From an uncultured Actinomycetota bacterium (GTDB taxonomy: Bacteria; Actinomycetota; Humimicrobiia; Humimicrobiales; Humimicrobiaceae): a stretch of 64,000 bases of DNA. Position numbers and translations under genes: made by a program. This document shows, piece by piece, positions 1,054-56,612 of this stretch. Position 1 is the first letter of the stretch. Each line of letters begins with the position of its first letter. The stretch covers positions 10,389 through 74,388 of the forward strand of contig CAZODQ010000004.1 in the NCBI GenBank assembly GCA_964578625.1, written 5' to 3'. The notes beneath the pieces are model-generated. The model saw nothing but the letters and a program-made list of their open reading frames with translations, made no database searches and was not told the origin of the DNA.

Positions 1054-1081
1054 TAAGATTAAAATTCTAATAGAAACTTAG

Positions 1082-1678
1082 GTGGGAATGGGTTTAAAAA
1101 AGAAAAGCAGCTGCTCGAATAAATACAGTGACCGGAAAAATCCTAAAGAGGGCCTGGTATTGATAAATACCGGGGATGGAAAGGGTAAGACGACGGCTGC
1201 TCTGGGATTGGCGTTAAGAGCCGCAGGTCATAATATGAAGGTCTTGATATTGCAGTTTATTAAAAATGACCATATGAACGGTGAAGCAAGGATTATTACG
1301 GAAAGGTTAAAGCCCTTGATTGATATTGAGCGGCTGGGAAAAGGATTTATAAGATTTAAAGACGGTAAGCCGGCACCGACCGGTATACAGATAAAGAATG
1401 CCGGAGATTCTTTTAAATATGCAAAAGAAAAAATCTACAGCGGTGAGTACGATATAATTATTCTGGATGAGATAAATAATATGATAAGTTACGGTCTCTT
1501 AAAGGTGGAAGAAGTAATGGAAATAATAAAAAGTAAGCCGAAAGGACTTTGCCTGGTGCTTACCGGAAGAAATGCTCCTTTAGAGCTTATAGACAGTGCT
1601 GATACGGTGACCGAGATGAAGGAGATAAAGCATGCTTTCAGAAAAGGTATAAAGGCAAGGAAGGGTATTGAATACTGA
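1082..1678 (+). CDS. cobO: corrinoid adenosyltransferase CobO/BtuR family
   Basis: Motif LINTGDGKGKTTAALGLALRAAGH...ILQFIKN is typical of cob(I)yrinic acid a,c-diamide adenosyltransferase. It lies next to cbiP. Confidence 0.8.
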   Translation: MGMGLKKKSSCSNKYSDRKNPKEGLVLINTGDGKGKTTAALGLALRAAGHNMKVLILQFIKNDHMNGEARIITERLKPLIDIERLGKGFIRFKDGKPAPTGIQIKNAGDSFKYAKEKIYSGEYDIIILDEINNMISYGLLKVEEVMEIIKSKPKGLCLVLTGRNAPLELIDSADTVTEMKEIKHAFRKGIKARKGIEY

Positions 1679-1754
1679 GTACCGGAAGCATATTGGATTA
1701 TTGGTAAAGATACGATTAAAAAAGCTATTTTAGTTAAGAAGGGAAATCATTAAT

Positions 1755-1946
1755 ATGGAATGCAACAAAGAAAGGAATTTAAAAAATTGTAACTGTACTT
1801 ATGAACCCTGTTCAAGAAAAGGCATATGCTGTGATTGTATAGCTTACCACAGGAAGCTGGGTGAACTCCCGGCTTGCTATTTTGACCGGAATGCGGAAAG
1901 GACATATGATAGATCCATTGAATACTTTATTAAATTGAACAGGTAA
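1755..1946 (+). CDS. small cysteine-rich protein (CNC..C..CCDC pattern), possible metal-binding
   Basis: 63 aa with 8 Cys, next to the cobalamin genes. No family assigned. Confidence 0.45.
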
Positions 1947-1994
1947 TAAAGTATTAAATGCTAATAAATCTTTTAAACAGAAGTATAGAAGTAT

Positions 1995-2525
1995 ATGACA
2001 ATATATATAAATAAATCAAAATTCACGACAAAAATAGGCGTTATGTATTATTTGTGGAAGTATACAGGTAATAGTTTAACAGTTTTATATCTCGGGATTG
2101 GAAGAGGAACTTTCCTGCATTATATAAAAAAAATTGAAAATAACAGTAGAAATACTGATAAGTTTTTTTTAACCGGCAAAAAATCAGTAGATATCGAGAA
2201 TAGGATTTCCAGTTATCTGGATGGCAAAATAAAAAATTTAAATTTAAAAATCGAGTTTTTAAATGGTACAGAATTTCAGAAAATAATATGGAATACTGCT
2301 GTTACCGTACCGTACGGAAAGACAGCAAGTTATAAGGAGCTGGCAGATATATCCGGATACAGTAAGGCCTGGAGGGCAGTAGGTACAGCATTAAAAAATA
2401 ATCCCATAATACTGGCAGTACCATGCCACAGAGTTATAAATCAAAACGGTAAAATAAGCAAATTTATAGTAGGGGAAAAGGTAAAGAGATTTTTATTGGA
2501 TCTGGAGAAATCATTTAAAAAATAA
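1995..2525 (+). CDS. ogt: methylated-DNA-protein-cysteine methyltransferase (Ogt/MGMT)
   Basis: Active-site motif VPCHRVIN in the C-terminal domain. The N-terminus may start at a later ATG. Confidence 0.75.
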   Translation: MTIYINKSKFTTKIGVMYYLWKYTGNSLTVLYLGIGRGTFLHYIKKIENNSRNTDKFFLTGKKSVDIENRISSYLDGKIKNLNLKIEFLNGTEFQKIIWNTAVTVPYGKTASYKELADISGYSKAWRAVGTALKNNPIILAVPCHRVINQNGKISKFIVGEKVKRFLLDLEKSFKK

Positions 2526-2582
2526 GGTAAGGTAAAACATTTTAAAGGCAAGGGATTTTAATAAGAAATAAGGGGGGTTAAA

Positions 2583-2885
2583 ATGGGTGGTTTTTTGGAA
2601 AACCTGAAGAAGTCCTTAACTGCACAAACAGGAGATTCTGGTTCTGACTTTATTACTTTTAAAGTGAAATGCGACAGATGTAATGAAGAAATCACAGTAA
2701 AAATAAGAAAAAATAGCGACATATCCCGGATTAGTATAGGAGAAGGCCCGCAGGGCTCAGAGTATTTTTTAAGAAAGGAAATACTTGGAGAGAAATGCAG
2801 CAATCTAATATCTATTGAAGTTTATTTCGGAAGTGGTTATTTTGTTATTTCAAAGGAAATTAGCGGCGGAAAATTTGTCGAGTAG
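2583..2885 (+). CDS. hypothetical protein
   Basis: 100-aa ORF with an RBS-like GGGGGG upstream. No recognisable motif. Confidence 0.35.
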   Translation: MGGFLENLKKSLTAQTGDSGSDFITFKVKCDRCNEEITVKIRKNSDISRISIGEGPQGSEYFLRKEILGEKCSNLISIEVYFGSGYFVISKEISGGKFVE

Positions 2886-2959
2886 CGCATAGATAAATAT
2901 TTTTTTTATGTTACAATCTAATGGTATTATTATGATTTTTACCGGGGAAATTTTAAAAG

Positions 2960-3745
2960 ATGAGCTTCTCTAAAAATTTAAGCGTGGTTGTTCTTGCTGC
3001 TGGTAAAGGTAAAAGAATGAAGTCAGGGATTCCAAAAGTACTTCATCAAGTATCCGGTAAACCAATGCTCTACTATATACTATCTTTAGCTGGTAAATTA
3101 AATCCTAAAAACATATTTGCGGTTATCGGTTATAAAGGAGAGCTAGTCAGTAATTATATTAAAAGTGAATTCCCGGAAGTCAAGACCATTGTTCAGCAAG
3201 AGCAGCTGGGTACTGCTCATGCTGTTTCTGTGTTAAAAAAACAAAAAGAGGATTTAGGAGAAGACATTTTAATAGTCCCCGGCGACTGTCCGTTGATTAA
3301 TCTAAACACGTTGAAGAAATTAGTTGAAAATAAAACTGCTTCCGGCAGTTCAGCCTGTATCATCACTTCACTGGTATCTGACCCGGAAGGGTATGGCAGA
3401 ATTATAAAAGATAAAAATGGAAATATTATAAAAATAGTTGAGGAAACTGATGCCAGTGCTGAGGAGAAAAAAATAAATGAGGTCAATTCTTCATTTTATT
3501 GTTTTAATAGCGAGTCCCTGTTTAAAAATATTGAAAAAATCAACAGGCGGAACATTCAAAAGGAATATTATCTGACTGATATTATTGAAGTTTTGATAAA
3601 AAATGGTGAAGAGGTATGCTGTTTTGAAGTTGCAGACTATAGAGAAGTTATGGGTATAAATAATATGATTCAGCTTACTGAAGTGGAAAACATTATGCAG
3701 AAAAAAATAGGCAGGGATTTAATGAAAAATGGAGTTGCAAGATAA
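2960..3745 (+). CDS. sugar-1-phosphate nucleotidyltransferase, GlmU N-terminal-domain-like, lacks the LbH acetyltransferase domain
   Basis: VVVLAAGKGKRMKSGIPKVLH nucleotidyltransferase signature. Only 261 aa. It occupies the gcaD/glmU position upstream of prs. Confidence 0.75.
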   Translation: MSFSKNLSVVVLAAGKGKRMKSGIPKVLHQVSGKPMLYYILSLAGKLNPKNIFAVIGYKGELVSNYIKSEFPEVKTIVQQEQLGTAHAVSVLKKQKEDLGEDILIVPGDCPLINLNTLKKLVENKTASGSSACIITSLVSDPEGYGRIIKDKNGNIIKIVEETDASAEEKKINEVNSSFYCFNSESLFKNIEKINRRNIQKEYYLTDIIEVLIKNGEEVCCFEVADYREVMGINNMIQLTEVENIMQKKIGRDLMKNGVAR

Positions 3746-3788
3746 TAAGATAAAAATAAAAAAAATATAAAGGAGTAAATAATTTATA

Positions 3789-4766
3789 ATGGGGGGTATA
3801 AAAGAAAATTTAATCAACAGGAGAATGATGCTGTTTTCGGGTTCTTCTTTTCCCAAACTTACCAATATGATTGCAGGAGAACTGGGAATAACTGCTGGAA
3901 GAGTTACCAGAAATAAGTTCAGCAATGGTGAAATCTATATAAAGTTTGATGAGAGTGTTAGGGGTGCAGAAGTATTTGTAGTGCAGACGTGTTGCGAGCC
4001 AATAAATGATAATATAATGGAATTACTTATAATGATAGATGCACTGAAGAGAGCTTCCGCAGCAATGATAAACGCTGTAATTCCCCATTATGGTTATGCA
4101 CGTCAGGATAAAAAGGCAGAAGGAAGAGAACCAATAACTGCGAAATTATTTGCAAACCTGCTTTCTATAGCAGGAATGGACAGAGCCATACTCGTTGATC
4201 TGCATGCTGCGACTATACAGGGATTCTTTGATGTACCAGTCGATCATGTCACTGCTATACCTATAATAGACAAATATTTTAAAGATAAAAATATCAAGAA
4301 TGGTGTTGTAGTAAGTCCGGATGTAGGTGGTGTAAAAAGGGCAAGCATCTTTGCAAGAAGACTGCATTTTCCTCTTGCTATATTGCATAAAAGAAGACCC
4401 ACTCCCAATAAAGCAGAAATAGAGCATATAGTAGGAGATGTGGAAGGAAAGGAAGCTATAATATTTGATGACATAATAGATACCGGAGATACACTTCTCA
4501 AAGCTGTTGATATGCTTCTCAGGCATAAGGCAAAGAAGATCTATGTCGGTGCAACACATCCGATTTTTTCCGGTGATGCAGTAAAAAGATTAGAAAAATC
4601 TGCGATTGAAGAGCTTGTGGTGATGGATACTATTCCCTTTAAAAACAAAGGCAGCTCAAATAAAATAAAAGTATTATCCATTGCTTCTCTGCTTGCAAAA
4701 ACAATAAAAAAAGTTTATCATTGCAAGTCGGTAAGCGAGTTGTTTAAAGGTGAAAATTTGGTCTAA
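3789..4766 (+). CDS. prs: ribose-phosphate pyrophosphokinase
   Basis: DLHAATIQGFFDVPVDH and PDVGGVKRA motifs. The start may be the internal MMLFSGSS. Confidence 0.9.
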   Translation: MGGIKENLINRRMMLFSGSSFPKLTNMIAGELGITAGRVTRNKFSNGEIYIKFDESVRGAEVFVVQTCCEPINDNIMELLIMIDALKRASAAMINAVIPHYGYARQDKKAEGREPITAKLFANLLSIAGMDRAILVDLHAATIQGFFDVPVDHVTAIPIIDKYFKDKNIKNGVVVSPDVGGVKRASIFARRLHFPLAILHKRRPTPNKAEIEHIVGDVEGKEAIIFDDIIDTGDTLLKAVDMLLRHKAKKIYVGATHPIFSGDAVKRLEKSAIEELVVMDTIPFKNKGSSNKIKVLSIASLLAKTIKKVYHCKSVSELFKGENLV

Positions 4767-16672: not shown

Positions 16673-16760
16673 GCCCGAGTGGCGGAATTGGTAGACGCAA
16701 CGGACTTAAAATCCGTTGAGGTTATGCCTCGTGCCAGTTCGATTCTGGCCTCGGGCACCA
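16673..16760 (+). tRNA. tRNA-Leu (anticodon UAA)
   Basis: Acceptor GCCCGAG/CTCGGGC. Anticodon stem ACGGA/TCCGT with loop CTTAAAA. Long variable arm. T arm GCCAG-TTCGATT-CTGGC. Encoded CCA. Confidence 0.9.
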
Positions 16761-16770
16761 TCTTTATATA

Positions 16771-16796
16771 TGGTTCGAATCCTGGCTCCCCAGCCA
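16771..16796 (+). repeat. tRNA 3'-end-like fragment (T-loop GGTTCGAATCC plus hairpin) 10 nt after tRNA-Leu
   Basis: TGGTTCGAATCCTGGCTCCCCAGCCA. Shares TGGTTCGAA...CAGCCA(ATA) with the downstream repeat family. Confidence 0.6.
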
Positions 16797-16941
16797 ATAT
16801 AATTTAAGGCTCTCCCCCAAATTCCGACTCCTAACCAAATTCCGTAAAGTTCACACAAACATATTGCTAATTAATCTCTATTATGATATTAAACATTAAT
16901 CCAAATTTGGGAATAGAAACAATATAAAGGAGGAGAATCCT

Positions 16942-17679
16942 ATGAAAATCGCAGATGGAATCGAAATGCTGAAAATATCAATTGATACCATGGGGAATAA
17001 AGGCATTATCCATCCAACCATACTCTGGGATAAAAGCGAGACTGTACTTGTAGACGCAGGATGCCCAGGTCAGATATTAAAGATACAACAAGGGTTTAAA
17101 AAAGTAGGTTTGTCGTTGTCCAAACTGGATAAATTAATACTAACTCATCATGATATAGACCATATTGGAGGTGCTGAGGATATAGTTAAAAATTCATCTA
17201 GAAATATAGAAGTAATTTCCCATAAAATAGAGAGGGGTTATATACATTTAAAGAAGTATCCAACCAAATTGAAGAAATTAAGATCTCGGCTTCAATCAAT
17301 GCCGTCAGAAATGAAAACAATGTTTGAAAACTTAGAAATTAGTTATAAAAAACATAGAGTATCTGTGAGTCAAACAGTAGTAAGCACAGAAAATCTACCC
17401 TTATGTGGAGGAATAGAGGTAATTTATACTCCCGGTCATACTCCAGGACATATTTCATTATATGTTAAAAAAAGTAAAATCTTGATTGCAGGGGATACAT
17501 TATTTATTGAAGATGGTAAATTAGTGCCACCACCAGAACATATTAATTTTAATAATAAACTTGTACTTAGTTCTTTAAAAAAATTGACACAATATGATAT
17601 TAGAAAAATTATTTGCTATCATGGTGGAGTGTATAGTAGAAATGTAAACAATAGCCTAAGAGAATTGATTGACGGTTAA
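16942..17679 (+). CDS. MBL-fold metallo-hydrolase
   Basis: HxHxDH motif LTHHDIDHIGG. Strong RBS AAGGAGGAG. Confidence 0.75.
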   Translation: MKIADGIEMLKISIDTMGNKGIIHPTILWDKSETVLVDAGCPGQILKIQQGFKKVGLSLSKLDKLILTHHDIDHIGGAEDIVKNSSRNIEVISHKIERGYIHLKKYPTKLKKLRSRLQSMPSEMKTMFENLEISYKKHRVSVSQTVVSTENLPLCGGIEVIYTPGHTPGHISLYVKKSKILIAGDTLFIEDGKLVPPPEHINFNNKLVLSSLKKLTQYDIRKIICYHGGVYSRNVNNSLRELIDG

Positions 17680-17689
17680 ATTATATAAC

Positions 17690-17741
17690 TTGATTATTTC
17701 ATTAATAAGTTGGTTCGAAATTTCGCAACCTGGAGCAGCCA
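17690..17741 (+). repeat. accessory-array hairpin repeat, copy A
   Basis: TTGATTATTTC...TTGGTTCGAAATTTCGCAACCTGGAGCAGCCA. Imperfect palindrome GGTTCGAAA/TTTCG(C)AACC. Confidence 0.8.
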
Positions 17742-17755
17742 AGCTAAATTGGTCT

Positions 17756-18508
17756 TTATTTTATTTTAAAAACATACATTGCCCAATTAAGAGTATCTCT
17801 ACCGTACAACAGATACTCCATTTTTGCTTTTTTTATTTTATTTAATAATTCAGAATTATCCGGGTCATTTGGATTGGCAGTTACATAATCATATGCTGAC
17901 CACCATTGCAAGGTTTCATAATGGTCCCAATCATCATGATTACTTACAAGTGTGTATATACAATTTAATCCTTCTTTTTCACCAACATCTATATTTTTAA
18001 AATGGGAATTAAATTCCTCTTTTTTTATTCCGCTCATTTCAAGATATTCATTATCAGGTTCTTTTAACCAGTAAGGTTCTCCTATAATAATCAGTCCATT
18101 TGGTTTTGTCATTTTCTTCAATGCTTTTATTGTCCCAATAAATCCATTGTAAACAAAGCTAGCACCAATGCACATGGTCAGGTCAAACAATTCATTGATT
18201 TTAGGTACATATTTTGTACCATCCATTTCTAATAATTCAATATCAGAGTCAGGTACTCTTTCGTTTTTCTTTTTTTCGCAATCTTTTATAAAATAAGGTG
18301 AAATATCAACTCCGATGCCGGAAATATTGAATAACTCTGCTAACCTGACCAAAGGTTCTCCTTTACCACAAGCAATATCTAAAACTTTGGAGCCTGGCTT
18401 TAAATTCAATAATGAAAACAAGCTTTCAAATTTACTTTGGCTCATAGGATTACAGATTAAGTGTTTCTTATGGGTAATATCATAATATTTCCAGATATCC
18501 ATTAGCAT
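17756..18508 (-). CDS. class I SAM-dependent methyltransferase
   Basis: Motif I VLDIACGKGE. Confidence 0.75.
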   Translation of the reverse strand: MLMDIWKYYDITHKKHLICNPMSQSKFESLFSLLNLKPGSKVLDIACGKGEPLVRLAELFNISGIGVDISPYFIKDCEKKKNERVPDSDIELLEMDGTKYVPKINELFDLTMCIGASFVYNGFIGTIKALKKMTKPNGLIIIGEPYWLKEPDNEYLEMSGIKKEEFNSHFKNIDVGEKEGLNCIYTLVSNHDDWDHYETLQWWSAYDYVTANPNDPDNSELLNKIKKAKMEYLLYGRDTLNWAMYVFKIK

Positions 18509-18579
18509 ACCTCCAAATAGTTTTAAATCAAGATATTGATTTTAGCAAAATTATTGGAAAAGCAAAAATGTTTTAAGTT

Positions 18580-18630
18580 TGATTATTTCCTTTAAAATTT
18601 GGTTCGAAATTTCGCAACCCGGGGCAGCCA
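18580..18630 (+). repeat. accessory-array hairpin repeat, copy B
   Basis: TTGATTATTTCCTTTAAAATTTGGTTCGAAATTTCGCAACCCGGGGCAGCCA. Confidence 0.8.
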
Positions 18631-18752
18631 ATAACCTATATTTAATAACTCATTCTGAGAGTATGTTCATTTTTATTTCAATCTGTAATAATAGCTGTAA
18701 TAAGATTATTGGAAATATCTTTTTTTAAGATTAAATGGAGGAGAGGTTTATT

Positions 18753-19925
18753 ATGAGTAAATATACCTGGAGTGGTTGGGCAAGTATAGATAGGCCTAAA
18801 GCTTATCTTAGCAACGAGCTTATTGCTATTGGGCAAAATAGTGATGGGCGTCTGGAGGTTTTTGCCATTGGTGGAGATGGAGCCTTGTGGCACACATGTC
18901 AACCAAAACCCAACAAAGGGCCCTGGAGTGGCTGGGCTAATCTGGGTAAGCCAGGTAGCATCTCGGACCTTGGTACTCCTGTTGCAATAAATAATAAAGA
19001 TGGACGACTGGAAGTTTTTGCTACTGGTTATACTGCGGGTACTACTACCTATACGGGGGGCGATCTCTGGCACATATCTCAATCAAAACCTAGTAAAGGT
19101 CCTTGGGCAACCTGGAATAACTTAGGAACACCTTCTAAAAGTGTAAAAATCAACAGACTTGGTGTAGGTCGAAATAGTGATGGTAGACTGGAGGTCTTTG
19201 CTGCCGGAGCTGATGGGGGCTCAATAAGCTCTAAAGAAGGTATCTGGCATATCTGGCAGCAAAAACCAAGCAAAGGACCGTGGAGTGGCTGGGCAAGGCT
19301 GGGTAAACCAAAAGGTGTTAATACGTTGAATAACCGAACTGCTGTAGTAGGCTATAATAGTGATGGCCGTTTGGAGATTTTTGTTACAAAAGGTAGTCTG
19401 TGGCATATGTATCAATCCAAACCCAGCAAGGGACCATGGGTTGGTTGGGGGAAAATGGGTAATCCTAAAAATACTACACTTAACCTAATACCGGTAGCAG
19501 TAGGACAGAATAGTGACGGACGATTGGAGGTATTTGCTGTAGATTATTGGAATGGTGTAGACTACAGCAAAGGTTCCCTATGGCATAGATATCAACCAAA
19601 ACCAGGTAAAGGGCCTTGGATAAACTGGGGTAGTCTTGGGAGACCAGGAAATATACCATTGATACATCAACCCATAGTAGAATGTGATAGTAATGGTTGT
19701 CTTGTGGTATTTACTCTTAACATAGAGAGTACTTTCTGGTATAGATATCAAACAGAACCAAAAAAGGGACCCTGGAGCAAATGGTATAGTCTGGGTAAAC
19801 CACCTGCTTCTAATATCTCAAATATTAATGCTGTTGCAAAAAATAAGGATGGACGGTTAGAGGTTTTTGTTCAAGGAGCTGCTAGTGGAAAAAATAATGT
19901 TCTTTGGCATAACTGGCAGAAGTGA
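18753..19925 (+). CDS. seven-bladed beta-propeller lectin-like repeat protein (tectonin/PLL-like W-repeats)
   Basis: Seven copies of NSDGRLEVFA..G.LWH.WQ.KP.KGPWS.W..LG. ATG at 18753 follows GGAGGAGAGG. No signal peptide. GC visibly higher than in neighbouring genes. Confidence 0.7.
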   Translation: MSKYTWSGWASIDRPKAYLSNELIAIGQNSDGRLEVFAIGGDGALWHTCQPKPNKGPWSGWANLGKPGSISDLGTPVAINNKDGRLEVFATGYTAGTTTYTGGDLWHISQSKPSKGPWATWNNLGTPSKSVKINRLGVGRNSDGRLEVFAAGADGGSISSKEGIWHIWQQKPSKGPWSGWARLGKPKGVNTLNNRTAVVGYNSDGRLEIFVTKGSLWHMYQSKPSKGPWVGWGKMGNPKNTTLNLIPVAVGQNSDGRLEVFAVDYWNGVDYSKGSLWHRYQPKPGKGPWINWGSLGRPGNIPLIHQPIVECDSNGCLVVFTLNIESTFWYRYQTEPKKGPWSKWYSLGKPPASNISNINAVAKNKDGRLEVFVQGAASGKNNVLWHNWQK

Positions 19926-19994
19926 ACTTACTTCTGGAGATAATAAATGAGATATTCTATAGATAAGGTAATATTGTTTATATTCTATAAGCTT

Positions 19995-20133
19995 AATTCT
20001 GGTATAAAAATATCCTTATCTAAACCCAATAAAGCAGTTCTAACTTTGTCCACTGTCCCCAGCAAAGTTCATTAATTTTAATAATTTCCTTTATAATTTG
20101 GTTCGAAATTTCGCAACCCGGGGCAGCCACCTT
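19995..20133 (+). repeat. composite repeat: long module AATTCTGGTATAAAAATATCCT...CCACTGTCCCCAGC with hairpin repeat copy C (20081-20129) inserted
   Basis: Long module is homologous to 21655-21729. Hairpin copy is identical to B in its 32-nt core. Confidence 0.75.
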
Positions 20134-20283
20134 GTACGTATTGGTTCAAGATTCGGGCTCTTCACCAACAACGGGGGTAACCCGTTCCTAACAGCATAGC
20201 GCTTTAATTTTCTATTGTCTATTTTTAATATATAATAAAACCAACTATTTAATGAAGGAGATTTCTAAGAGACAAAATCTGTT

Positions 20284-20505
20284 ATGAAGAAAGTATCTTC
20301 TCTAGAAGATCTGGCAAAATATTCTCTCCGCTGGGTGCTTATGGGTAAAAATGTTATTTGTGTATTTCCTGGAGCCAGCAATACAGATCAGATAATATCA
20401 AATCTTGCTGCGTTTGATATGCCGCCACTTTCTAAAGATCAGATGGAAACTGTAGAAAGAGTATATGAAAATTATATAAAGAATCATGTCCACCTTCACT
20501 GGTAA
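20284..20505 (+). pseudogene. aldo/keto reductase C-terminal fragment (gene remnant)
   Basis: 73 aa LRWVLMGKNVICVFPGASNTDQIISNLAA matches the AKR C-terminal signature. There is an in-frame stop just upstream and no N-terminal barrel. Confidence 0.6.
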
Positions 20506-20551
20506 AACTAAAAAATGTATATTGTAACCAAATTTTTAGAAAGGATTTATA

Positions 20552-21610
20552 ATGGCAGATCTCTTTTCACCAATATCAATCAAGGATGTTGAAATTAAAA
20601 ACCGTATTGTTTTACCACCAATGGGGCGTTTTGGATGGTCTGATGTAAAAGACTTTGTGTCTGATAAACATATAAAACATTATTCTCAAATTGCTGAAGG
20701 GGGAGCTGGACTGATAATTATAGAAGCACTGGCCATAGCCAAAGATGGAAAGCTTTCAAAAGACCAGCTTGGAATATGGTCGGATGACCATATCGATGGT
20801 ATCAGCAAAATAGCAGAAGCCTGCCACAGATATGGCTCGGTAGTTACAGCACAGATACATCATGCCGGGCTGGAAACTCCCATATCGGTATCTAAAATAG
20901 CTTCAGCTCCATCAGACTTTAAGAGGGGTGGCCATTTGGTTGCAAAAGCTTTAAGTGTTGAAGGAATCCAGAAGATTCAAGAGCAATTTGTGGACGCTGC
21001 GGAAAGAGCCAGAAAAGCGGGCCTTGACGGCATAGAGCTTCATGGAGCTCATGGGTACCTTATTGATCAGTTTATGTCTCCAATAACGAATAAAAGAGAT
21101 GATAATTATGGCGGTGATCTGGCTGGAAGATCAACTTTTGCTCGCCAGATAATTGAAATGATAAAAAGCGGTATTGGAAGTGATGATTTTATAATTGGAT
21201 ATAGAATGGGAGGTAATGAACCAACATTGGATGAAGGAAGAAAAATTGCAAAAATTCTTGAAGAAGCTGGAATTGATCTTTTGCATGTATCATCTGGCAT
21301 AGAAGGCGATACAATTCCCAAGCCTCCAACAGATTTTGATTATAGCTGGATTGTCTACTGCGGTATAGAAATAAAAAAACAAGTACGAATTCCTGTAATC
21401 GTGGTGTACAGAATAAAGACTCCGGAACAGGGTAAATACCTTATTGAAAATGACCTGGCTGATTTTGTTGCAGTAGGAAGAGGCCATCTTTGTGATAAAG
21501 ATTGGGCAAATAAAGCAAGAGATAATTTAAAAGTCATTAAGTGCCTGGAGTGTGCAAAATGTTTTTGGTTTGATGAGATTGAAAAATGTCCCAGATATAA
21601 GTTCGATTAG
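20552..21610 (+). CDS. NADH:flavin oxidoreductase, Old Yellow Enzyme family
   Basis: HGAHGYLIDQFMSP and the overall OYE TIM-barrel pattern. Confidence 0.85.
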   Translation: MADLFSPISIKDVEIKNRIVLPPMGRFGWSDVKDFVSDKHIKHYSQIAEGGAGLIIIEALAIAKDGKLSKDQLGIWSDDHIDGISKIAEACHRYGSVVTAQIHHAGLETPISVSKIASAPSDFKRGGHLVAKALSVEGIQKIQEQFVDAAERARKAGLDGIELHGAHGYLIDQFMSPITNKRDDNYGGDLAGRSTFARQIIEMIKSGIGSDDFIIGYRMGGNEPTLDEGRKIAKILEEAGIDLLHVSSGIEGDTIPKPPTDFDYSWIVYCGIEIKKQVRIPVIVVYRIKTPEQGKYLIENDLADFVAVGRGHLCDKDWANKARDNLKVIKCLECAKCFWFDEIEKCPRYKFD

Positions 21611-21654
21611 AGAGCTAATAACAGAAAATTAGGAGAAGTTTTTATTTAAAACCC

Positions 21655-21729
21655 AATTCCGGTATAAAAATATCCTCATTTAACGTTAAAATCTTGGTTT
21701 TAACATTATCCACAGTGGCCAGCCACCTT
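21655..21729 (+). repeat. long repeat module without the hairpin insert (empty-site version)
   Basis: AATTCCGGTATAAAAATATCCTCATTTAAC...CCACAGTGGCCAGCCACCTT is homologous to 19995-20068 plus 20124-20133. Confidence 0.7.
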
Positions 21730-21819
21730 AAAAAGAATTTTTTCTTAACTTTCAAAGGATTTATCTTTATAATCTATTAGAATCAAATTTTAATAAGTTA
21801 GGGTGAATAAGGAGAAGAA

Positions 21820-22341
21820 ATGGAAATAGTGATTAATTCATCTTCAACCAGCTTAGAAATTCCAATCTCATTTATTTTTTGGGGTTTTGTCATTGCCTAT
21901 ATCATTCATATAATAGATGAATCATTAATGGGTGAGACTTTTGTCGGAATGGTTAAGAACCTATTTTGGCCGGAATATCAGTGGAAGCATTTCTTTGGCT
22001 TTAATGCATTACTACTTTCATTAACAATTATATCAATTATATTATTTGAGGTATTTAATGGTTCATGGATAGTTGCACCACTAATATTTGTTTTTTTATA
22101 TACTACGAATGGAATATGGCATTTAGTATCAACTATCATTACCAGGAAATACTCTCCTGGGCTTGCAACAAGTATAATTTACTGGATACTTTTTTACTTT
22201 TTGGTTAGGTATTCTTTTATTCCTAATACTATTCCCACTAGGATTATTGTAATTTCTGCAATCTCAGGGACATTTTTGACGATATTGATGATTTCTTCAT
22301 TTTTTATTTTTAAAAGGAGATTTAATAGGGAGTCTAGATAA
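21820..22341 (+). CDS. integral membrane protein (possible HXXEE-domain family)
   Basis: Four to five TM helices and HIIDES near the N-terminus. Confidence 0.45.
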   Translation: MEIVINSSSTSLEIPISFIFWGFVIAYIIHIIDESLMGETFVGMVKNLFWPEYQWKHFFGFNALLLSLTIISIILFEVFNGSWIVAPLIFVFLYTTNGIWHLVSTIITRKYSPGLATSIIYWILFYFLVRYSFIPNTIPTRIIVISAISGTFLTILMISSFFIFKRRFNRESR

Positions 22342-22361
22342 AAAGATCTTTAATTATAAAT

Positions 22362-22407
22362 AACTCTTTAATAATCTGGTTCGAAATTTCGCTACTTGGG
22401 GTATTCA
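22362..22407 (+). repeat. accessory-array hairpin repeat, copy D (diverged)
   Basis: TTTAATAATCTGGTTCGAAATTTCGCTACTTGGGGTATTCA. Confidence 0.7.
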
Positions 22408-22419
22408 ATAAAATCTTTA

Positions 22420-23340
22420 CTAATTCATGTAGTTTAACTTACTTCCTTTGACCTTCATTTTTAACCTGTAGACTGAGGTAGAAGCAGTAATATAAAGAAT
22501 ATCCCAGTTTTTACCTCCCCAATTCAAATTACTTGTTACTTCCGGTAATTCAATTAAACCTATGTACTCTGCCCGGGGACTGATTACCCATATCCCTCCG
22601 TGACCTGCAACATAGATATTTCCAAGTTCGTCACATTTCATACCATCAGGGGAGCTGCCTTTGGTATTTCTAGAACATATATTATCAAAGAATACACGCC
22701 CTTTTGTGATTGATCCTTCGGGTTTGACATCAAAAGCCCTGATGTGGTAAAGCCTGCTGTCATCTACATATAAGACTTTCTCATCAGGAGACAGGCACAG
22801 GCCATTTGGTTGTGTAAAATCACTTGCAATTAATTCCAATTCTCCGCTTCCAGGATTTATTCGATATATGCCTTGATAATCCAGTTCTTTATTTCTTTCC
22901 AGACCGGAATCTGCCTTTCGGCCGTAAGTAGGATCTGTAAAATATATTGAACCGTTTTTTGCTACAATTACATCATTTGGAGAGTTTAGTTCCTTACCTT
23001 TGTAATGGGAAGCTATTGTTTCTCTTCTACCATCGGGATATTCTTTTACTACAGTACTTGTTATATGTTCGCATACAATAAGATTCCCCTCTTTATCATA
23101 AGTCATACCATTACATTTATTGCTTGGCCTTATTACTTCTTCTATTTTATTCTTTTCACTCCACTTGATTCTTACATTACCGTGTACATCACTAAATAAT
23201 AAAAATTCCTGCTCTTTATTCCATACCGGACCTTCGGTAAAAACAAACCCGGTGGCTATTTTTTCAATTTTATACCCTCTTTCAACTAAGCTATACAGCC
23301 TATTCATATTATCGCTTCTTTCCATTCTTGTATCTCTCAA
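22420..23340 (-). CDS. SMP-30/gluconolactonase/LRE family beta-propeller protein
   Basis: NSPNDVIVAKNGSIYFTDP and GPDG motifs typical of SGL lactonases. Confidence 0.75.
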   Translation of the reverse strand: MRDTRMERSDNMNRLYSLVERGYKIEKIATGFVFTEGPVWNKEQEFLLFSDVHGNVRIKWSEKNKIEEVIRPSNKCNGMTYDKEGNLIVCEHITSTVVKEYPDGRRETIASHYKGKELNSPNDVIVAKNGSIYFTDPTYGRKADSGLERNKELDYQGIYRINPGSGELELIASDFTQPNGLCLSPDEKVLYVDDSRLYHIRAFDVKPEGSITKGRVFFDNICSRNTKGSSPDGMKCDELGNIYVAGHGGIWVISPRAEYIGLIELPEVTSNLNWGGKNWDILYITASTSVYRLKMKVKGSKLNYMN

Positions 23341-23531
23341 TTTTTTTACACCAGCACTAAATAAGTATTTATATGTCTCTATCTTAAGAAGTTATATTAA
23401 TATTGTCTATAGGATTCAGGTGTAAAAATTATAGATACGATCTTAAATTAAGCAATTGTAAAGAACCTTTAAATAATGAATAATAAACTAAAATATGCAA
23501 TAATAAGCAACATAAATTAGCTTATTGAAAA

Positions 23532-23957
23532 GTGATCAATATGAACAATATTAAAAGATTCGGTGTTTCAATTGAGGATGATTTGTTAGAAAAGTTTGAT
23601 ATTTATATCAAATCAAAGAATTATACCAACCGCTCGGAAGCACTGAGAGACTTGATTAGAAAGGAATTTGTTGAAGAACAATGGATTAAGGCAGATAAAA
23701 ATGCCGCAGGTGCAATAATTTTAGTTTTTGACCATCATAAAAGAGAGCTTATGGATAGCCTGGTAGATATCCAGCATGATTATCATAAGATCATTATTTC
23801 AACACAGCATATTCATCTTGATCACAGGATGTGTCTGGAAATAATAGTAGTCAAGGGAAAAATAAATAAGATCTATCAATTGGAATCTAAGCTGAAGTCC
23901 ATAAAGGGTGTTAAGCATATTTCTCTTTCCAAGTCTACACTGGCAGAAGAAATATAA
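23532..23957 (+). CDS. nikR: nickel-responsive regulator NikR
   Basis: Ribbon-helix-helix N-terminus (RFGVSIEDDLLEKFD...NRSEALRDLIRKE). C-terminal H/C-rich metal-binding domain (HHKRE...H...H..C). Confidence 0.75.
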   Translation: MINMNNIKRFGVSIEDDLLEKFDIYIKSKNYTNRSEALRDLIRKEFVEEQWIKADKNAAGAIILVFDHHKRELMDSLVDIQHDYHKIIISTQHIHLDHRMCLEIIVVKGKINKIYQLESKLKSIKGVKHISLSKSTLAEEI

Positions 23958-23964
23958 AGATATA

Positions 23965-24531
23965 TTATCTTGGTACCCCTATCCATCTTGGAGTTTTATT
24001 TAAATACTCTTGGTAAGTATTCCCGAATTTCTTTTTACAGTAAAGTTCTTCGGAATCAGCAACAATATTTACTAAGATCATGAATACAGTTGAAATCATC
24101 AAAATAATCCATGAAGCTGCAGCCATACCTATTCCCATGAGGGCTAAGAAATGAGAAAAATATATTGGATGTCTGGAATAACGATAAATTCCTTCAGTCA
24201 CCGGTTTACCTGGAGGAATGGCAATAAAATTAATACCTGCGGTTATAAATAGTGCGAGTGCCAGCAAGAAAATAACAAGACCCATATAAAACCAGGGTGT
24301 CCCCAGTTTAAGCGGTAAAAAAATAGAGTATAAAAATGCTAAATAGGTAATTATAGTAGCAATATAACCTGTTAATTCTACTCTTTTACCTGTCTTCATA
24401 TCAGAAGGATTACCAAATCTCTTGTAAGCTCTTCTGTTAATTAAGAATATTGAATATGGTATAAGTAAAAAACAGGCTGAAAAAACCCAGGCGTTCCATA
24501 CACCAATTTTAAATACTGGTATAAGTTCCAT
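23965..24531 (-). CDS. isoprenylcysteine carboxyl methyltransferase (ICMT/PEMT) family membrane methyltransferase
   Basis: RYSRHPIYFSHFLALMGIG motif and multiple TM helices. Confidence 0.7.
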   Translation of the reverse strand: MELIPVFKIGVWNAWVFSACFLLIPYSIFLINRRAYKRFGNPSDMKTGKRVELTGYIATIITYLAFLYSIFLPLKLGTPWFYMGLVIFLLALALFITAGINFIAIPPGKPVTEGIYRYSRHPIYFSHFLALMGIGMAAASWIILMISTVFMILVNIVADSEELYCKKKFGNTYQEYLNKTPRWIGVPR

Positions 24532-24762
24532 TTTCTATCTTCTTATTAAATCACTTTAAATTATAATACTATAATAGGAATACATATGTATAGGATAATA
24601 AAGAAAAGATTGGAGTGATTCATTATTACACTCATTCCGGCTGTTTTCTTCTATTATTTTAAAAAATACCAGAGATAAAATTTTTTAAATATTTGTTTTC
24701 ATTTTTGGCGCTATATGAATATAATGTTGATTAAGATTACCAATTTTTGAAAGGAGACTTCA

Positions 24763-25020
24763 ATGATTGCATCTAAGGATCAAGGTCCAAGCGGACTCGC
24801 CATTGCGGCACTGATAACAGGTATTTTGGGGATGTCGATTGTACCGGTTATACTGGGCGCGATTGATTTTGGAAAAATAAAAAAAGGCGAAGCAAGCCCA
24901 GCAGGCAGGGGCTTTGATATTGCGGGTATTGTTCTTGGAGCTATAGGGATAGTAGTATGGTTAATAGTTGCTATCGTTATGGCAGTAGTAGGGACAGGTT
25001 TGCTTTATAATCTTTATTAG
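24763..25020 (+). CDS. small membrane protein, hypothetical
   Basis: 85 aa with two hydrophobic helices. RBS GGAGACT upstream. Confidence 0.4.
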   Translation: MIASKDQGPSGLAIAALITGILGMSIVPVILGAIDFGKIKKGEASPAGRGFDIAGIVLGAIGIVVWLIVAIVMAVVGTGLLYNLY

Positions 25021-25136
25021 AAAAATTTTAGTGCGTGATTATAGAATCATTTATGCACAGGTAAGTATATTTAGGCCCCATATAAAGTGGGGCTTAAATA
25101 TTTAGAAAAGTTTTTTAAATCTTTATTAAGTTCTAT

Positions 25137-26021
25137 ATGGAAATACCAGTAAAAAAACTAAAAAGTGATTTTAAATTACCGGTGTTTGGGTTTGGAGTAT
25201 ACAGAATGGGTGGCGTCTTAACCCATGACCCCGAAAATGATGATGAAAAGGATATATCTGTTATAAAGAGTGCATTAAACTTGGGTGTTACTCATATTGA
25301 TACTGCGGAAATGTATGCTCAGGGTTATAGTGAGATATTGGTGGGTAGAGCAATTAAAGGATATGAGAGATCAAAATTAATTATCGCTACCAAAGTTTCT
25401 CCTATGAATCTGCATTATGATGATGTCATAAGTGCGGTAAAAGGCAGTCTTGAAAGGCTGAATACCGATTATATAGATTTATACATGGTACACTACCCCA
25501 ATTTCAAAATACCTATTGCTGAAACTATGAAAGCCATGGATTATATGATGGAAGAAGGCTTTATTAGGTATATAGGAGTCAGCAATTTCAGTCTTCACCA
25601 ATTTAAAGAAGCACAGAGATATACAAGAAATAAAATAATTTGTAATCAGATACCATATAGTCTGATAAACCGTAAGTTTCAGGCTGATGGTTTTATAGAT
25701 TATGCAAAAGAAAATGAGGTAATGATTGCTGCGTGGAGGCCGATTGAAGGGGGTATGTTATCAAAGAAAGGAATAGAATTACTGGATAAAATCTGCCGCA
25801 GGTATAACAAAACACCCGGCCAGATAGCCATTAACTGGCTTATCAGCCAGAAAAATGTAATAACTATCCCTGGCTCGAGGAACATAGAACACCTTAAAGA
25901 AAATCTTGGGTCTGTAGGCTGGAAGCTTACACTGAAAGATATAAAAATGTTAGATGATGATTTCCCGCGAAAAGATTTTTCTTCTATAGCTGATGATTAC
26001 TGGCATGAAATATTAAAATAG
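25137..26021 (+). CDS. aldo/keto reductase
   Basis: AKR signatures (GVTHIDTAEMY, LERLNTDYIDLYMVH, IPGSRNIEHLKENL). Confidence 0.85.
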   Translation: MEIPVKKLKSDFKLPVFGFGVYRMGGVLTHDPENDDEKDISVIKSALNLGVTHIDTAEMYAQGYSEILVGRAIKGYERSKLIIATKVSPMNLHYDDVISAVKGSLERLNTDYIDLYMVHYPNFKIPIAETMKAMDYMMEEGFIRYIGVSNFSLHQFKEAQRYTRNKIICNQIPYSLINRKFQADGFIDYAKENEVMIAAWRPIEGGMLSKKGIELLDKICRRYNKTPGQIAINWLISQKNVITIPGSRNIEHLKENLGSVGWKLTLKDIKMLDDDFPRKDFSSIADDYWHEILK

Positions 26022-26073
26022 GTATACATCTGAATTTATTCAGTAAGTCATTAGTTTGAAGGTGTACCGGCTT

Positions 26074-26589
26074 TCAGTTATTTTTTTTTGTCTTTTTGAT
26101 TTTAGCGGAGGGAGCCTTTTTTGTTTTCAGGGCAGGTGGTTTTCTAGGAGTAGATTTACTCTTTATCGTTTTTTCTTTTACAGCTGGTTTTTTCCTGGTG
26201 GTAGATTTTCCTCTTTTAGCAGGCATCCTTTTGATCTCTTTTTTAGCTGCAGCTTTTTCCTTTGGCCTGGTTTCTTTTACGGGTTCTGATTCCTTTTTTG
26301 TTGAGGTGATTTTTTTTAAAATCTTTGCTGCAGAATCAAGATCTTTTCTATATTGGGTATCATCTGCAGGATTGAAGAATTTTTTTCCTCGGTGATATTT
26401 GGTATCTGTAAAGGTCAATTTTTTAAAATTATTTACATCAATAATAAAATTAGAAGGGAGAGTTTTTAAAAGATTTACGGTACTTGCATGCCAGTTTTTA
26501 AACCTGAGATCCCTGCTGCTTAAATCCATGATTGTTTTTATTTCCTTAAGTCTTTTAAAAATCTTGTCCAAGAGTTCTTTTTCCATCAT
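26074..26589 (-). CDS. histone H1-like lysine-rich protein (N-terminal globular domain plus K/A/P-rich tail)
   Basis: C-terminal 90 aa are KKPAVKEK...PRKPPALKTKKAPSAKIKKTKK. Confidence 0.5.
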   Translation of the reverse strand: MMEKELLDKIFKRLKEIKTIMDLSSRDLRFKNWHASTVNLLKTLPSNFIIDVNNFKKLTFTDTKYHRGKKFFNPADDTQYRKDLDSAAKILKKITSTKKESEPVKETRPKEKAAAKKEIKRMPAKRGKSTTRKKPAVKEKTIKSKSTPRKPPALKTKKAPSAKIKKTKKNN

Positions 26590-26777
26590 TAGTTTATATA
26601 TTTGTATAATTTAATCTGAATTTATTTTATCGTATTCTATATTCATTATGAATTTTGAGTATAATAGATTAAGTGCATTTTTTCAATTACTAAGCTGATA
26701 AGGAGTTTATTGTTAAAAATAAAATAGACAGTCTTAAAAAATACCTGCTTGAGATTCCTAATTTTCTTTCCATTTTT

Positions 26778-27914
26778 ATGGTACCTGTATTCTTTGTAAC
26801 TGCAAGTCATATGCTTTTAGAGATGAGTAGGACTACCGGTTACGGTATTGGTGACTTAAGCTTAATTTTTACTTTTTTTAATGCTGGACTGATTGTAGGA
26901 CAGTTAACCTCTATATTCTACAATCGCAAATTTTCAAAACTTAATATAATTCTGACAGGATATGTAATTATTATTCCTTGTTTGATATTGCTAATGGTAG
27001 TTAAAGATTTATATCTTTTTTATATTCTTTATTGTCTTATTGGTTATATTGCAGGAGTGATATGGCTTCAGGCAACCAAATATATTTTGGAAAATGATAT
27101 TAAAAATAAAGACAGGTTAATTACCATATTCTTAAATTTCTATCCTATGGGACATATATCAGCTCCTTTTATTGCTTCGTATTTGATTAACAATGGTATT
27201 AACTGGAGGTATTCCTACGTTATTATGATTTTTTTAGTAATTGTTATATTTATCCTCTATTCTATTTTAAAAAGAGGTAGGGGAGCGAAGATATATTATA
27301 AAGAGGAAGAAAGACTGCAGTTTAGGAAAATTTTTTTTAACCGTAGGTTAAATATAATCTTCATTTTAGGATGTATCCCACTTACACTTTATGCTATTTC
27401 TGAAACGGTTATTTCTACCTGGGTATCCCCATTTCTGCAGAGTGTGAGATTTTTTAATATTCAGACAGCCGGTCTTACAGTTTCTATATTCTGGATAGCT
27501 ATAATTGTAGGCAGGACTATAGTAAGTATTATAGCAGGCAGGTTTAAAACAAATTATATAATCCTAGCTCTATCCGTTATTGCAATAGTCCCTGTGATTG
27601 TATTTATTTATTTAAAATCTACTTATGCTGCTATGATTACGATAGCCTTTGCAGGCCTGGGTTATTCAGGAATAATTACCCTGGGGATTTCTTCGGCGAG
27701 CACAGTTTATGAAAAAGGTAGAGGAGTCCTTGCCAGTATTGTTTTTGCGGTAGCAAATGCCGGTATTTCTGTTGCTCCTTTTATAACCAGATTTGTCTCT
27801 CAGTTTAGTATGAATTTGTCCATCGCGGTTGCTCCTATTTTTATGGCTTTACTGTCCCTATTTATAATAGGTAAGAATTTTTTTGAAAGCACTTCAGGGG
27901 AAAATCGAAATTAA
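26778..27914 (+). CDS. MFS-type transporter
   Basis: About 11 to 12 TM helices in two halves with a central charged loop. The first helix may start upstream at a non-ATG codon. Confidence 0.55.
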   Translation: MVPVFFVTASHMLLEMSRTTGYGIGDLSLIFTFFNAGLIVGQLTSIFYNRKFSKLNIILTGYVIIIPCLILLMVVKDLYLFYILYCLIGYIAGVIWLQATKYILENDIKNKDRLITIFLNFYPMGHISAPFIASYLINNGINWRYSYVIMIFLVIVIFILYSILKRGRGAKIYYKEEERLQFRKIFFNRRLNIIFILGCIPLTLYAISETVISTWVSPFLQSVRFFNIQTAGLTVSIFWIAIIVGRTIVSIIAGRFKTNYIILALSVIAIVPVIVFIYLKSTYAAMITIAFAGLGYSGIITLGISSASTVYEKGRGVLASIVFAVANAGISVAPFITRFVSQFSMNLSIAVAPIFMALLSLFIIGKNFFESTSGENRN

Positions 27915-27972
27915 AATCAAAAGATGATAACATATAGTTTGGAAAATTAATCCTATAATAACAGGAGACATT

Positions 27973-28413
27973 ATGAAAATTGAAAGTACAGCCTTTAAAA
28001 ACAATGAGTTGATTCCACAAGAATATACCTGTGATGGGAAGAATATAAACCCTCTGCTGTTGATAAGTGATGTGCCTGAAAATGCGAAGAGCCTGGTGCT
28101 TATAGTGGATGACCCTGATGCTTCAGCTGGAACCTGGGTACACTGGACGGTGTGGAATATAGATCCTGAGGTTACAGAAATACCCGAAAACAGCGTACCG
28201 GAAGGATCGGTAGAAGGAGTAACAGATTCCGGCAGGCCCGGATATTCAGGCCCCTGTCCGCCACCGGGAACACACCGCTATTTTTTCAAGCTTTTTGCGC
28301 TGGATACAACCCTGAACCTAAGTCCTTCTATAAGAGCAGTAGATATTGAAAAAGAGATGGAAGCCAGTATTCTTGCAGAGGCACAGTTGGTAGGACTGTA
28401 CAGCCGCCAGTGA
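27973..28413 (+). CDS. YbhB/YbcL family phosphatidylethanolamine-binding protein (PEBP)
   Basis: PPPGTHRYFFKLFALD signature. Confidence 0.8.
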   Translation: MKIESTAFKNNELIPQEYTCDGKNINPLLLISDVPENAKSLVLIVDDPDASAGTWVHWTVWNIDPEVTEIPENSVPEGSVEGVTDSGRPGYSGPCPPPGTHRYFFKLFALDTTLNLSPSIRAVDIEKEMEASILAEAQLVGLYSRQ

Positions 28414-28414
28414 T

Positions 28415-56480: not shown

Positions 56481-56514
56481 GCAGCAGCCCCAGGTATTTT
56501 AATTTCGAACCATA
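56481..56514 (-). repeat. diverged tRNA-3'-end-like element (reverse orientation) related to 16767-16796
   Basis: Reverse complement reads ATATGGTTCGAAATTAAAATACCTGGGGCTGCTG. The first 12 nt are identical to ATATGGTTCGAA at 16767. Confidence 0.4.
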
Positions 56515-56612
56515 TTTTGAAGGAAAAAAGCGATTAAGCACTTAATCCAAAATTTTAATTAATTGAAAAAACTTCATAGCTCTAAATCTTTTAGTGTCAT
56601 AATATTGAATAA

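Follow-up and report, generated by a model that had tools for sequence, protein, structure and literature searches.

To our knowledge, no system other than integrons that stores and reshuffles single genes as cassettes is well understood so far. Integrative and conjugative elements (ICE), integrative mobilizable elements (IME) and integrase-less cis-mobilizable elements (CIMEs) undergo accretion in streptococci, and Xer-dependent modules include the pdif modules of Acinetobacter plasmids and the integrative mobile elements exploiting Xer (IMEX) at dif. The tycheposons of Prochlorococcus are tRNA-anchored islands built by successive integrations (preprint 10.1101/2020.12.28.424599). We have analyzed a stretch of 64,000 nucleotides, referred to here as the window, from an uncultured Actinomycetota bacterium (contig CAZODQ010000004.1). 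In this window an array of small gene units, closed by short co-oriented repeats, follows an intact tRNA-Leu(UAA) gene. The units have a common anatomy, are anchored at a tRNA gene, exchange the arms of their sites, have exact borders, and turn over between genomes. The region is likely to be the tRNA-proximal part of an island built from small mobile cassettes, which a site-specific recombinase acting in trans would move.

The array works like an integron, or like a cluster of attC sites lacking integron-integrases (CALIN), and yet it fails each defining test of that family. In both, small and mostly one-gene units stand head to tail and each closes with a co-oriented recombination site. Both carry toxin-antitoxin and accessory-enzyme cargo, many arrays lack an adjacent integrase, and one cassette may be found in different arrays. 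However, the sites described here have no R''-L''...L'-R' boxes (RYYYAAC ... GTTRRRY), and their junction is at ...CAGCCA, not between the G and the TT of R'. They display strong conservation of linear sequence instead of a folded bottom-strand signature. Entry is at the 3' end of several tRNA genes and not at attI, no IntI was found, and the cassette genes face either way and are apparently expressed from signals of their own. A preliminary description of the window had proposed a cassette-array logic with sites other than classical attC. The absence of the boxes bears out the latter point, and the former is supported by arrays in about 190 loci, by tRNA anchoring, by a break in synteny and by the mobility of the units, as detailed below.

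With tycheposons and CIMEs the array shares its position in a tRNA-adjacent island, the intact target tRNA, partial tRNA 3' ends as direct repeats between units, the outward displacement of older units by newer ones, and integrase-less units between att sites. The units here are, in contrast, roughly one tenth the size and hardly ever contain integrase or replication genes. They are bounded by dedicated sites of 58-80 nt with conserved arms, in which only the core is tRNA-like, rather than by plain copies of host tRNA ends, and the same site families serve at least five tRNA anchors. Repetitive extragenic palindromes (REP) and the mosaic elements built from them (BIME), miniature inverted-repeat transposable elements (MITE) and palindrome-associated transposable elements (PATE) are likewise short, conserved, hairpin-containing intergenic repeats that occur in many copies per genome and fragment assemblies. 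Unlike these, the present sites are not dispersed over the 64-kb window, are strictly co-oriented and tRNA-linked, and move with the adjacent gene. No partner of the RAYT or TnpA kind was found, the sole IS200 tnpA being an insertion that disrupts a site. The Xer-dependent modules are also small gene modules with short bounding sites and a recombinase encoded outside the module, but here the XerC-spacer-XerD architecture of dif is absent, the sites are direct and not alternating, and the arrays are located at tRNA genes instead of the terminus or plasmids.

The anchor of the array is the tRNA-Leu(UAA) gene at 16673-16760 (+ strand), found intact by ARAGORN and Rfam, with the core genes TrkH, DivIC and Ppx/GppA (Pfam) upstream. 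Starting 11 nt past this gene, and before the first cassette, is a 25-nt copy of the 3' end of a tRNA-Gln, from T-loop to CCA (16772-16796, + strand, GGTTCGAATCCTGGCTCCCCAGCCA), which we read as a minimal att core. The array had been thought to begin immediately after the tRNA gene; the anchor was correctly named, although this fragment lies between. Cassette 1 (16797-17741) carries a gene for a metallo-beta-lactamase-fold hydrolase (16942-17679, + strand) and has at its 3' end type A site 1 (17684-17741). Cassette 2 (17742-18630) carries an S-adenosylmethionine (SAM) methyltransferase gene on the minus strand (17756-18508) and ends in type A site 2 (18573-18630). Cassette 3 (18631-20129) carries an FG-GAP/beta-propeller protein (Pfam; gene 18735-19925, + strand), and at its end a truncated type B site (19991-20065) stands just left of type A site 3 (20072-20129). 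Cassette 4a (20130-21725) opens with a conserved right arm, R2 (20130-20215), encodes the C-terminal remnant of an aldo-keto reductase (AKR; 20284-20505) and an old yellow enzyme (OYE) flavin oxidoreductase (20552-21610), both from Pfam, and closes with a type B site (21651-21732) whose CCA end is at 21725. Cassette 4b (21726-22407) has a gene for an HXXEE membrane protein (21820-22341, + strand) and ends in the degenerate type A site 4 (22350-22407). All of these cassettes and sites are oriented on the + strand. The last unit of this part, 22408-23420 on the minus strand, holds an SGL/SMP-30 lactonase gene (Pfam; 22420-23340, minus strand) and has no recognisable site at its distal end. The four co-oriented type A repeats thus lie where the preliminary description had placed them, and Pfam agrees with its gene contents (metallo-beta-lactamase, SAM methyltransferase, beta-propeller, AKR remnant plus OYE, membrane protein and SMP-30). 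Its rule of one gene per unit holds for the other units and not for the fourth, which is split by the type B site at 21651-21732; the apparent exception arose because this second site family had been overlooked.

Type A is a repeat of about 58 nt, present 3' of tRNA-Leu(UAA) in four + strand copies, with the layout GGTTCGAA-ATTTCGCAA-CCCGGGG(C/G)AGCCA. Its 19-nt core, GGTTCGAAATTTCGCAACC, has three exact matches and one with two mismatches in the window, where shuffled sequences give an expectation of 0.01. Type B is about 75 nt long, with the consensus AATTCTGGTATAAAAATATCC...GGTTCTAAC.T.GTCCAC.GTGGCCAGCCA, and has two copies in the window, one of them truncated. Judged from their sequence, the final ~30 nt of each A or B site mimic the 3' end of a tRNA, from GGTTCGAA to ...CAGCCA. 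The type A site starts with the universal T-loop motif and its end matches the tRNA-Asn of the lineage (CCCGGGGAGCCA). The terminus of type B, (G)TCCCCAGCCA or GTGGCCAGCCA, resembles tRNA-Gln, and the intact tRNA-Gln genes of related loci terminate in GGTTCGAATCCTCCCTCCCCAGCCA. The adjacent tRNA-Leu is therefore not the model: type B and the 25-nt fragment resemble tRNA-Gln, and type A resembles tRNA-Asn in its acceptor part. Relative to GGTTCGAATCCTCCCTCCCCAGCCA, the 25-nt fragment of the window has two changes. The same fragment is found behind non-Gln tRNAs in four loci: the window, L007 (tRNA-Glu), L040 (tRNA-Leu) and L052 (tRNA-Arg); the copy is exact in L007 and has one or two differences in the other three. 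Despite their tRNA-like ends, the A and B sites are not plain copies of a tRNA, and conservation drops sharply past the ...CCA. The cassette attachment sites span 58-80 nt overall.

As previously noted, the type A copies contain an imperfect palindrome with one unpaired C and are not followed by a U-tract. The palindrome has 9 bp with one bulged C and a predicted stability of about -3.5 kcal/mol. The preliminary description had called the copies hairpin repeats. When whole A and B sites were folded as DNA on both strands, the z scores against shuffles lay between -1.5 and +0.6, so that the suggested attC-like signature of the bottom strand is not found. Type B has no hairpin comparable to that of type A, and the common A2 subtype (TTTCACTACT) disrupts 2 of the 9 hairpin pairs, with a single compensatory change seen. 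Because it is weak and is broken in one subtype, the type A hairpin is probably not the key feature. An intrinsic terminator is ruled out, since there is no T-run behind any of the four type A copies and the strand of the site is constant regardless of the direction of the neighbouring gene. A known RNA family is likewise excluded: over 16.6-23.5 kb Rfam identified only the tRNA at its gathering threshold and nothing credible at E<5. A viral origin was rejected as well: IMG/VR contains no genuine counterpart of the A core, of the B block or of the R1 or R2 arm. The raw patterns gave 27 matches there, all due to chance, and profiles find no real A or B site in any of them.

Comparison loci, designated by L numbers, come from metagenome-assembled genomes (MAGs) and metagenomes and amount to about 190 in all. 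The Joint Genome Institute (JGI) metagenome loci are those among the matches listed; a stricter 30-nt pattern gave more than 120 stretches. GTDB species genomes contain the exact type A core in 56 stretches, 52 of them real and 4 due to chance in unrelated high-GC MAGs. Nearly all real matches are in low-GC MAGs labelled Actinomycetota/Humimicrobiaceae or Atribacterota. Profile searches of MAGs and metagenomes identified at least 522 A or B sites in at least 186 loci, and in 181 of 185 loci (54 of 55 in one set and 127 of 130 in the other) all sites face the same way. Between neighbouring sites, the units (n=77) have a median length of 1250 bp (range 467-3896); 50 of the 77 contain one open reading frame (ORF) of at least 60 aa and 17 contain two, including HigB/HigA pairs. 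The direction of cassette ORFs is unbiased with respect to the site (63 in the same and 52 in the opposite direction). Cargo elsewhere includes HigB/HigA pairs, catalase, CorA, RhuM and methyltransferases. Arrays may be long, with nine sites within 5 kb in L171/L175 and about 15 kb of array on one contig, of which L020 and L035 are adjoining pieces; some units are nearly empty, their neighbouring sites being merely 20-90 nt apart. Wherever the upstream end of an array is visible it adjoins an intact, co-oriented tRNA gene. This is the case in 24 loci (9 + 15) including the window, with tRNA-Gln (ttg/ctg) in 11, tRNA-Arg(cct) in 6, tRNA-Leu (taa/caa) in 5, and tRNA-Glu and tRNA-Asn in 1 each. 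The far side of these tRNAs is occupied by housekeeping genes, for example IspE-KsgA-TatD-MetRS, GltX or, in the window, Ppx. All protein families that recur around the arrays are either cargo or core genes.

Single cassettes recur in different surroundings. Cassette 2 (17742-18630) is 98.4% identical to positions 1114-2002 of L151, where it has other neighbours. Its upstream junction is with a type A site in the window and a type B site in L151, and the identity begins exactly at CAGCCA. Downstream, the identity extends over the cassette and the site belonging to it as far as the CCA, apart from a 7-nt patch in the core. The HXXEE cassette (21726-22407) recurs in L176 (91% identity) and in L211 (88.5%), where it is the second unit behind tRNA-Leu(caa) and is preceded by a type A and not a type B site. 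The beta-propeller (lectin) cassette is found again in L018 (82%) and in L105 and L168 (77%), the SGL unit has an 82% identical homologue in L049, and a unit with a PEMT-like methyltransferase recurs elsewhere too. The borders of all homologous units with at least 88% identity over at least 300 nt were tabulated. In 14 cases homology sets in 6-7 nt ahead of the CCA end, which corresponds to the CAGCCA common to all sites; its downstream limit is the CCA end itself in 17 cases, -17/-19 nt in 14, -12 nt in 6 and -4 nt in 6. Exchange thus occurs within the tRNA-like portion of the site, at no single fixed nucleotide.

The comparison of whole loci gives the same picture of a fixed anchor and replaceable contents. 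Between positions 10000 and 16792 of the window L099 matches it at 84% identity, and past that point the two are unrelated; the synteny of L195 with the window stops at 16768. In L040 the order Ppx, tRNA-Leu and Gln fragment is followed by a HigBA cassette where the window has its metallo-beta-lactamase cassette. Among non-identical genome pairs that share an anchor, none has alignable DNA in the 3 kb behind the tRNA, and the upstream flanks, where alignable, are 66-91% identical; in two tRNA-Gln(ctg) pairs the upstream flanks fail to align too. An unchanging block in related genomes, which the preliminary description had named as an outcome that would speak against it, is thus not what is seen: cassette turnover is complete. 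The other such outcome, a REP-like scatter among core genes, is also absent, the only copy in the window outside the array being a decayed one at 56490-56535.

Many cassettes open with one of three conserved right arms, R1, R2 or R6, directly after the ...CCA. There are about 12 copies of R1 and more than 15 of R6 in the MAG loci, and 26 of R2 in all loci. The R2 arm is about 80 nt long, with the consensus GGCTCTTCACCAACAAACGGGGCAACCCG.TCCCTAACAGCATAGCGCTTTGACTCT. Besides the copy at 20130-20215 of the window, examples are 6982-7067 of L035 and 1147-1223 of L046; in L035 an R2 arm stands directly behind an intact tRNA-Gln. Every combination of a left part (tRNA body, A or B) with a right arm (R1, R2, R6 or a unique sequence) is present. 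Hybrid cores are found as well, such as that of L030, in which the A hairpin is fused to a Gln-type acceptor, and the conserved left and right arms persist on cassettes with unrelated cargo. None of the cassette starts R1, R2 and R6 has a conserved structure, whereas a PATE would have subterminal hairpins at both ends, and R2 as a structured RNA was rejected, since it has neither a conserved helix nor covariation. The R2 arm may contain protein-binding sites or an outward promoter (TTGACT...). On the minus strand, type B plus the R1 arm reads as an ORF-like string of about 48 aa (..REVDHFxYCTEWLGTVDKVRT..DIFIPEL, followed by a stop) with some synonymous changes, as at 2079-2273 of L011, 263-400 of L020, 4302-4440 of L035 and 21651-21732 of the window. 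Gene callers label it as hypothetical proteins of 29-81 aa. We rejected it as the relic of a protein gene, because its codon periodicity is weak and several copies have stop codons; a profile search of 5.8 billion proteins gave no parent protein, only hypothetical ORFs of 29-81 aa.

We propose the following mechanism. A site-specific recombinase, most likely of the tyrosine type and encoded outside the arrays, would act in trans on the site of a circular cassette and recombine it with a resident site or with the 3' end of a tRNA gene. Genuine tRNA 3' ends (Gln, Arg-CCT, Leu, Glu and Asn) would be the points of entry, and strand exchange would occur within the final ~20 nt of the tRNA-like core. 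Recombination of site with site, or of site with tRNA, would pile the cassettes up head to tail with all sites co-oriented with the tRNA, and the tRNA would remain intact because the crossover falls at its acceptor end or past it. The cassettes could then be excised, reshuffled and passed among genomes. Sites that are nearly identical probably also undergo ordinary homologous recombination or gene conversion, which would shuffle the cassettes further; the -17/-19 borders and the 7-nt patch would be best explained by such exchange over the 45-58 nt common to A-type sites.

No recombinase is encoded in the window, in agreement with the preliminary description, as judged by a phmmer search of all six-frame ORFs (80 aa or longer) with E. 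coli XerD and by scans for tyrosine and serine recombinase motifs. About 1 Mb of sequence around sites was scanned in the same way and for HUH motifs, with the tyrosine recombinase of L179, one IS200 and three IS1595 transposases as the result. The small (240-aa) tyrosine recombinase of L179 belongs to a non-IntI family of 240-260 aa with only the PF00589 catalytic domain; its gene converges on an A site, with its 3' end 110 nt away. A frameshifted copy is likewise placed in L220, where it closes a decayed array of five sites distally and has MobC/NikA-like genes as neighbours. These two are the only recombinases beside a site among about 190 loci. Tracing of the L179 family into six more contigs gave no consistent link to sites, and the family is a lead and not an answer. 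In L217 (10001-11509), L218 (3507-5003) and L222 (53-595 and 4152-5042), homologues of the L179 type lie tail to tail with a 295-aa XerC/D-like recombinase, the 3' ends of the paired genes overlapping in L217 and L218. The pairs adjoin IS66 or DDE transposases, and that of L218 also adjoins an HXXEE gene resembling the cassette of the window. The IS200 and IS1595 transposases near arrays are incidental insertions. The IS200-type element of L006 (2100-2727; contig CAYOLB010000062.1) lies inside the left arm of a type A site, has terminal hairpins of its own and carries a tnpA with an in-frame stop. IS1595 (ISXO2-like) transposases lie inside or beside arrays in L024 (7433-7999), L045 (3770-4633), L046 (4340-5080) and L164 (6147-6983).

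Several observations weigh against movement of the cassettes by a dedicated recombinase. Apart from L179, neither XerD-like ORFs nor motifs of tyrosine or serine recombinases are found in the ~1 Mb around sites. The L179 integrase has a 97% identical copy in L221 that adjoins no site, and the more distant homologues of this enzyme, those found tail to tail with the 295-aa recombinase, have no sites nearby. The anchor tRNAs share little past the ...CCA and the T-loop, which is unusual for an integrase acting on double-stranded DNA. The position of the crossover is not unique (0 versus -17/-19), so that a single classical overlap of 6-8 bp is insufficient and homology-driven exchange contributes. 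Near-identical strains that differ by one cassette are absent from the comparison, in which the closest pair is 91% identical upstream, and neither a circular cassette nor the sequence of an empty site was observed.

The alternatives differ in what they take to be mobile. If larger integrase-carrying elements of the prophage, IME or tycheposon kind had integrated serially at tRNA 3' ends and then decayed through deletions, the A and B sites would be attR scars and the single units immobile. Anchoring at a tRNA, partial-tRNA direct repeats and tandem accretion are the leavings to be expected of such elements (preprint 10.1101/2020.12.28.424599). The frameshifted integrase and MobC/NikA-like genes at the end of the L220 array, the same integrase 110 nt from the A site of L179, and the loss of sites from the distal island of the window also fit. 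Nevertheless, we regard such debris as unlikely: among more than 500 sites there are essentially no integrase remnants in between, the units are uniformly small and mostly of one gene, a 98.4% identical cassette lies among different neighbours with its borders exactly at sites, conserved left and right arms occur on unrelated cargo, and there are near-empty units with sites 20-90 nt apart. It is far less probable that the repeats themselves are the mobile entities, REP- or MITE-like or derived from IS200/IS605 in the manner of PATEs, and insert 3' of a tRNA-like hairpin plus CCA throughout a hypervariable island, the genes then not being cassettes at all. It is true that every insertion has a hairpin-like sequence and ...CCA on its 5' side and that all are on one strand, a pattern reminiscent of HUH transposition of single-stranded DNA, and one IS200-type tnpA, with a stop codon, lies within the A site of L006. 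The homology between loci, however, comprises gene plus site as a unit and ends at sites, not around them. The L006 element has different terminal hairpins and interrupts the left arm of the site, no Y1 or RAYT gene recurs, type B is without a comparable hairpin and whole sites fold like shuffles, and in the window the sole copy outside the array is one decayed site. Of the two possibilities named in the preliminary description, a new recombination-site family and a tRNA-derived MITE, the results thus favour a new tRNA-derived site family and disfavour the MITE.

Two further readings retain the cassettes and dispense with either a new enzyme or a new site. Without any dedicated enzyme, the 58-80-nt sites could serve as portable homology for RecA-dependent recombination or gene conversion, for example after DNA uptake. 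This accords with downstream borders at two or more positions within shared sequence (0, -4, -12 and -17/-19) and with nearly identical cassettes that differ by the 7-nt conversion-like patch. A and B sites, and sites and tRNAs, overlap by only 6-10 nt (CAGCCA, GGTTCGAA), which is too short for RecA, and their junctions are nevertheless common; such junctions are not products of RecA, and homology alone is therefore insufficient. Strict co-orientation and anchoring at tRNA ends would also be left unaccounted for, and we hold exchange by homology alone to be highly improbable. That the array is a classical integron array without its integrase, a CALIN with attC sites that are merely divergent, seems the most improbable reading. 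Co-oriented sites at the 3' ends of cassettes, one-gene units, toxin-antitoxin cassettes and the lack of a nearby integrase would all be expected of a CALIN, but the R''/L''-L'/R' boxes and RYYYAAC...GTTRRRY are missing and neither strand folds significantly. Linear conservation is far above that of attC, the junction lies at the ...CCA of a tRNA-like core, the arrays begin at tRNA genes and not at attI/intI, and the genes run in either direction.

Cassettes moved in trans by a site-specific recombinase could belong to a platform of their own. Our tentative proposal, held with less confidence than the mobility of the cassettes, is a previously undescribed gene-capture platform, integron-like but evolutionarily separate, in which a recombinase would act in trans on sites that mimic a tRNA from T-loop to CCA and several tRNA genes would take the part of 'attI'. 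Through such a platform, single-gene cassettes with promoters of their own would circulate by the hundreds among uncultured subsurface bacteria of low GC content (Humimicrobiia/Atribacterota bins). Full-text searches of the literature found no description of this system, and it is possibly an independent cassette platform. If so, it would be a second independent solution, cassette platforms would have arisen more than once, and the spread of flexible genes in a large uncultured lineage of sediment and subsurface would be explained. It would also draw attention to a recombinase whose target is unusual and that could serve as a tool. The sequence tag GGTTCGAAATTTCGCAACC...CAGCCA can be used for mining cassette metagenomes.

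Beyond 23420 no A or B site is recognisable in the distal part of the island. This stretch (23421-28414) encodes NikR, a PEMT-like methyltransferase, DUF4190, an AKR, a hypothetical protein, an MFS transporter and PEBP. The PEMT (23965-24531) and MFS (26778-27914) genes are found as cassettes between sites in other loci (L043, L009 and L030). From 28415 on, core genes are seen again, namely a HycI-like protease and MTHFR, and the same pair of genes flanks the array of L011. On account of these cassettes and of the return of core genes at 28415, the island probably extends from 16761 to 28414, and 23421-28414, with its extent so estimated, is probably its older, decayed distal half. The solitary degenerate type A site at 56490-56535 (minus strand, ccttcaaaatatGGTTCGAAATTaaaatacCTGGGGCTGCTGC) lies beside an AKR gene (55413-56387) that groups with cassette-borne AKRs (25137-26021 of the window, L021 and L049). 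Site and gene are possibly the relic of one cassette, distant from any tRNA.

The contigs that carry arrays frequently start or stop within a site (L030, L034, L036, L052 and L138), and the repeats therefore fragment short-read assemblies. With many arrays at contig ends, the flexible genes of these organisms are probably under-binned. The labels of array-bearing bins differ (Actinomycetota, Atribacterota, 'archaeon' and Chloroflexota), so that the binning of island contigs appears unreliable. In a MAG labelled Chloroflexota, positions 1166-1250 of L029, right after a type A site, resemble the 5' two-thirds of a tRNA-Glu with a corrupted 3' part, for which ARAGORN makes no call. Finally, the beta-propeller gene of the window (18735-19925) contains six to seven internal repeats of ~156-180 nt, corresponding to blades, which dominate the output of repeat finders.

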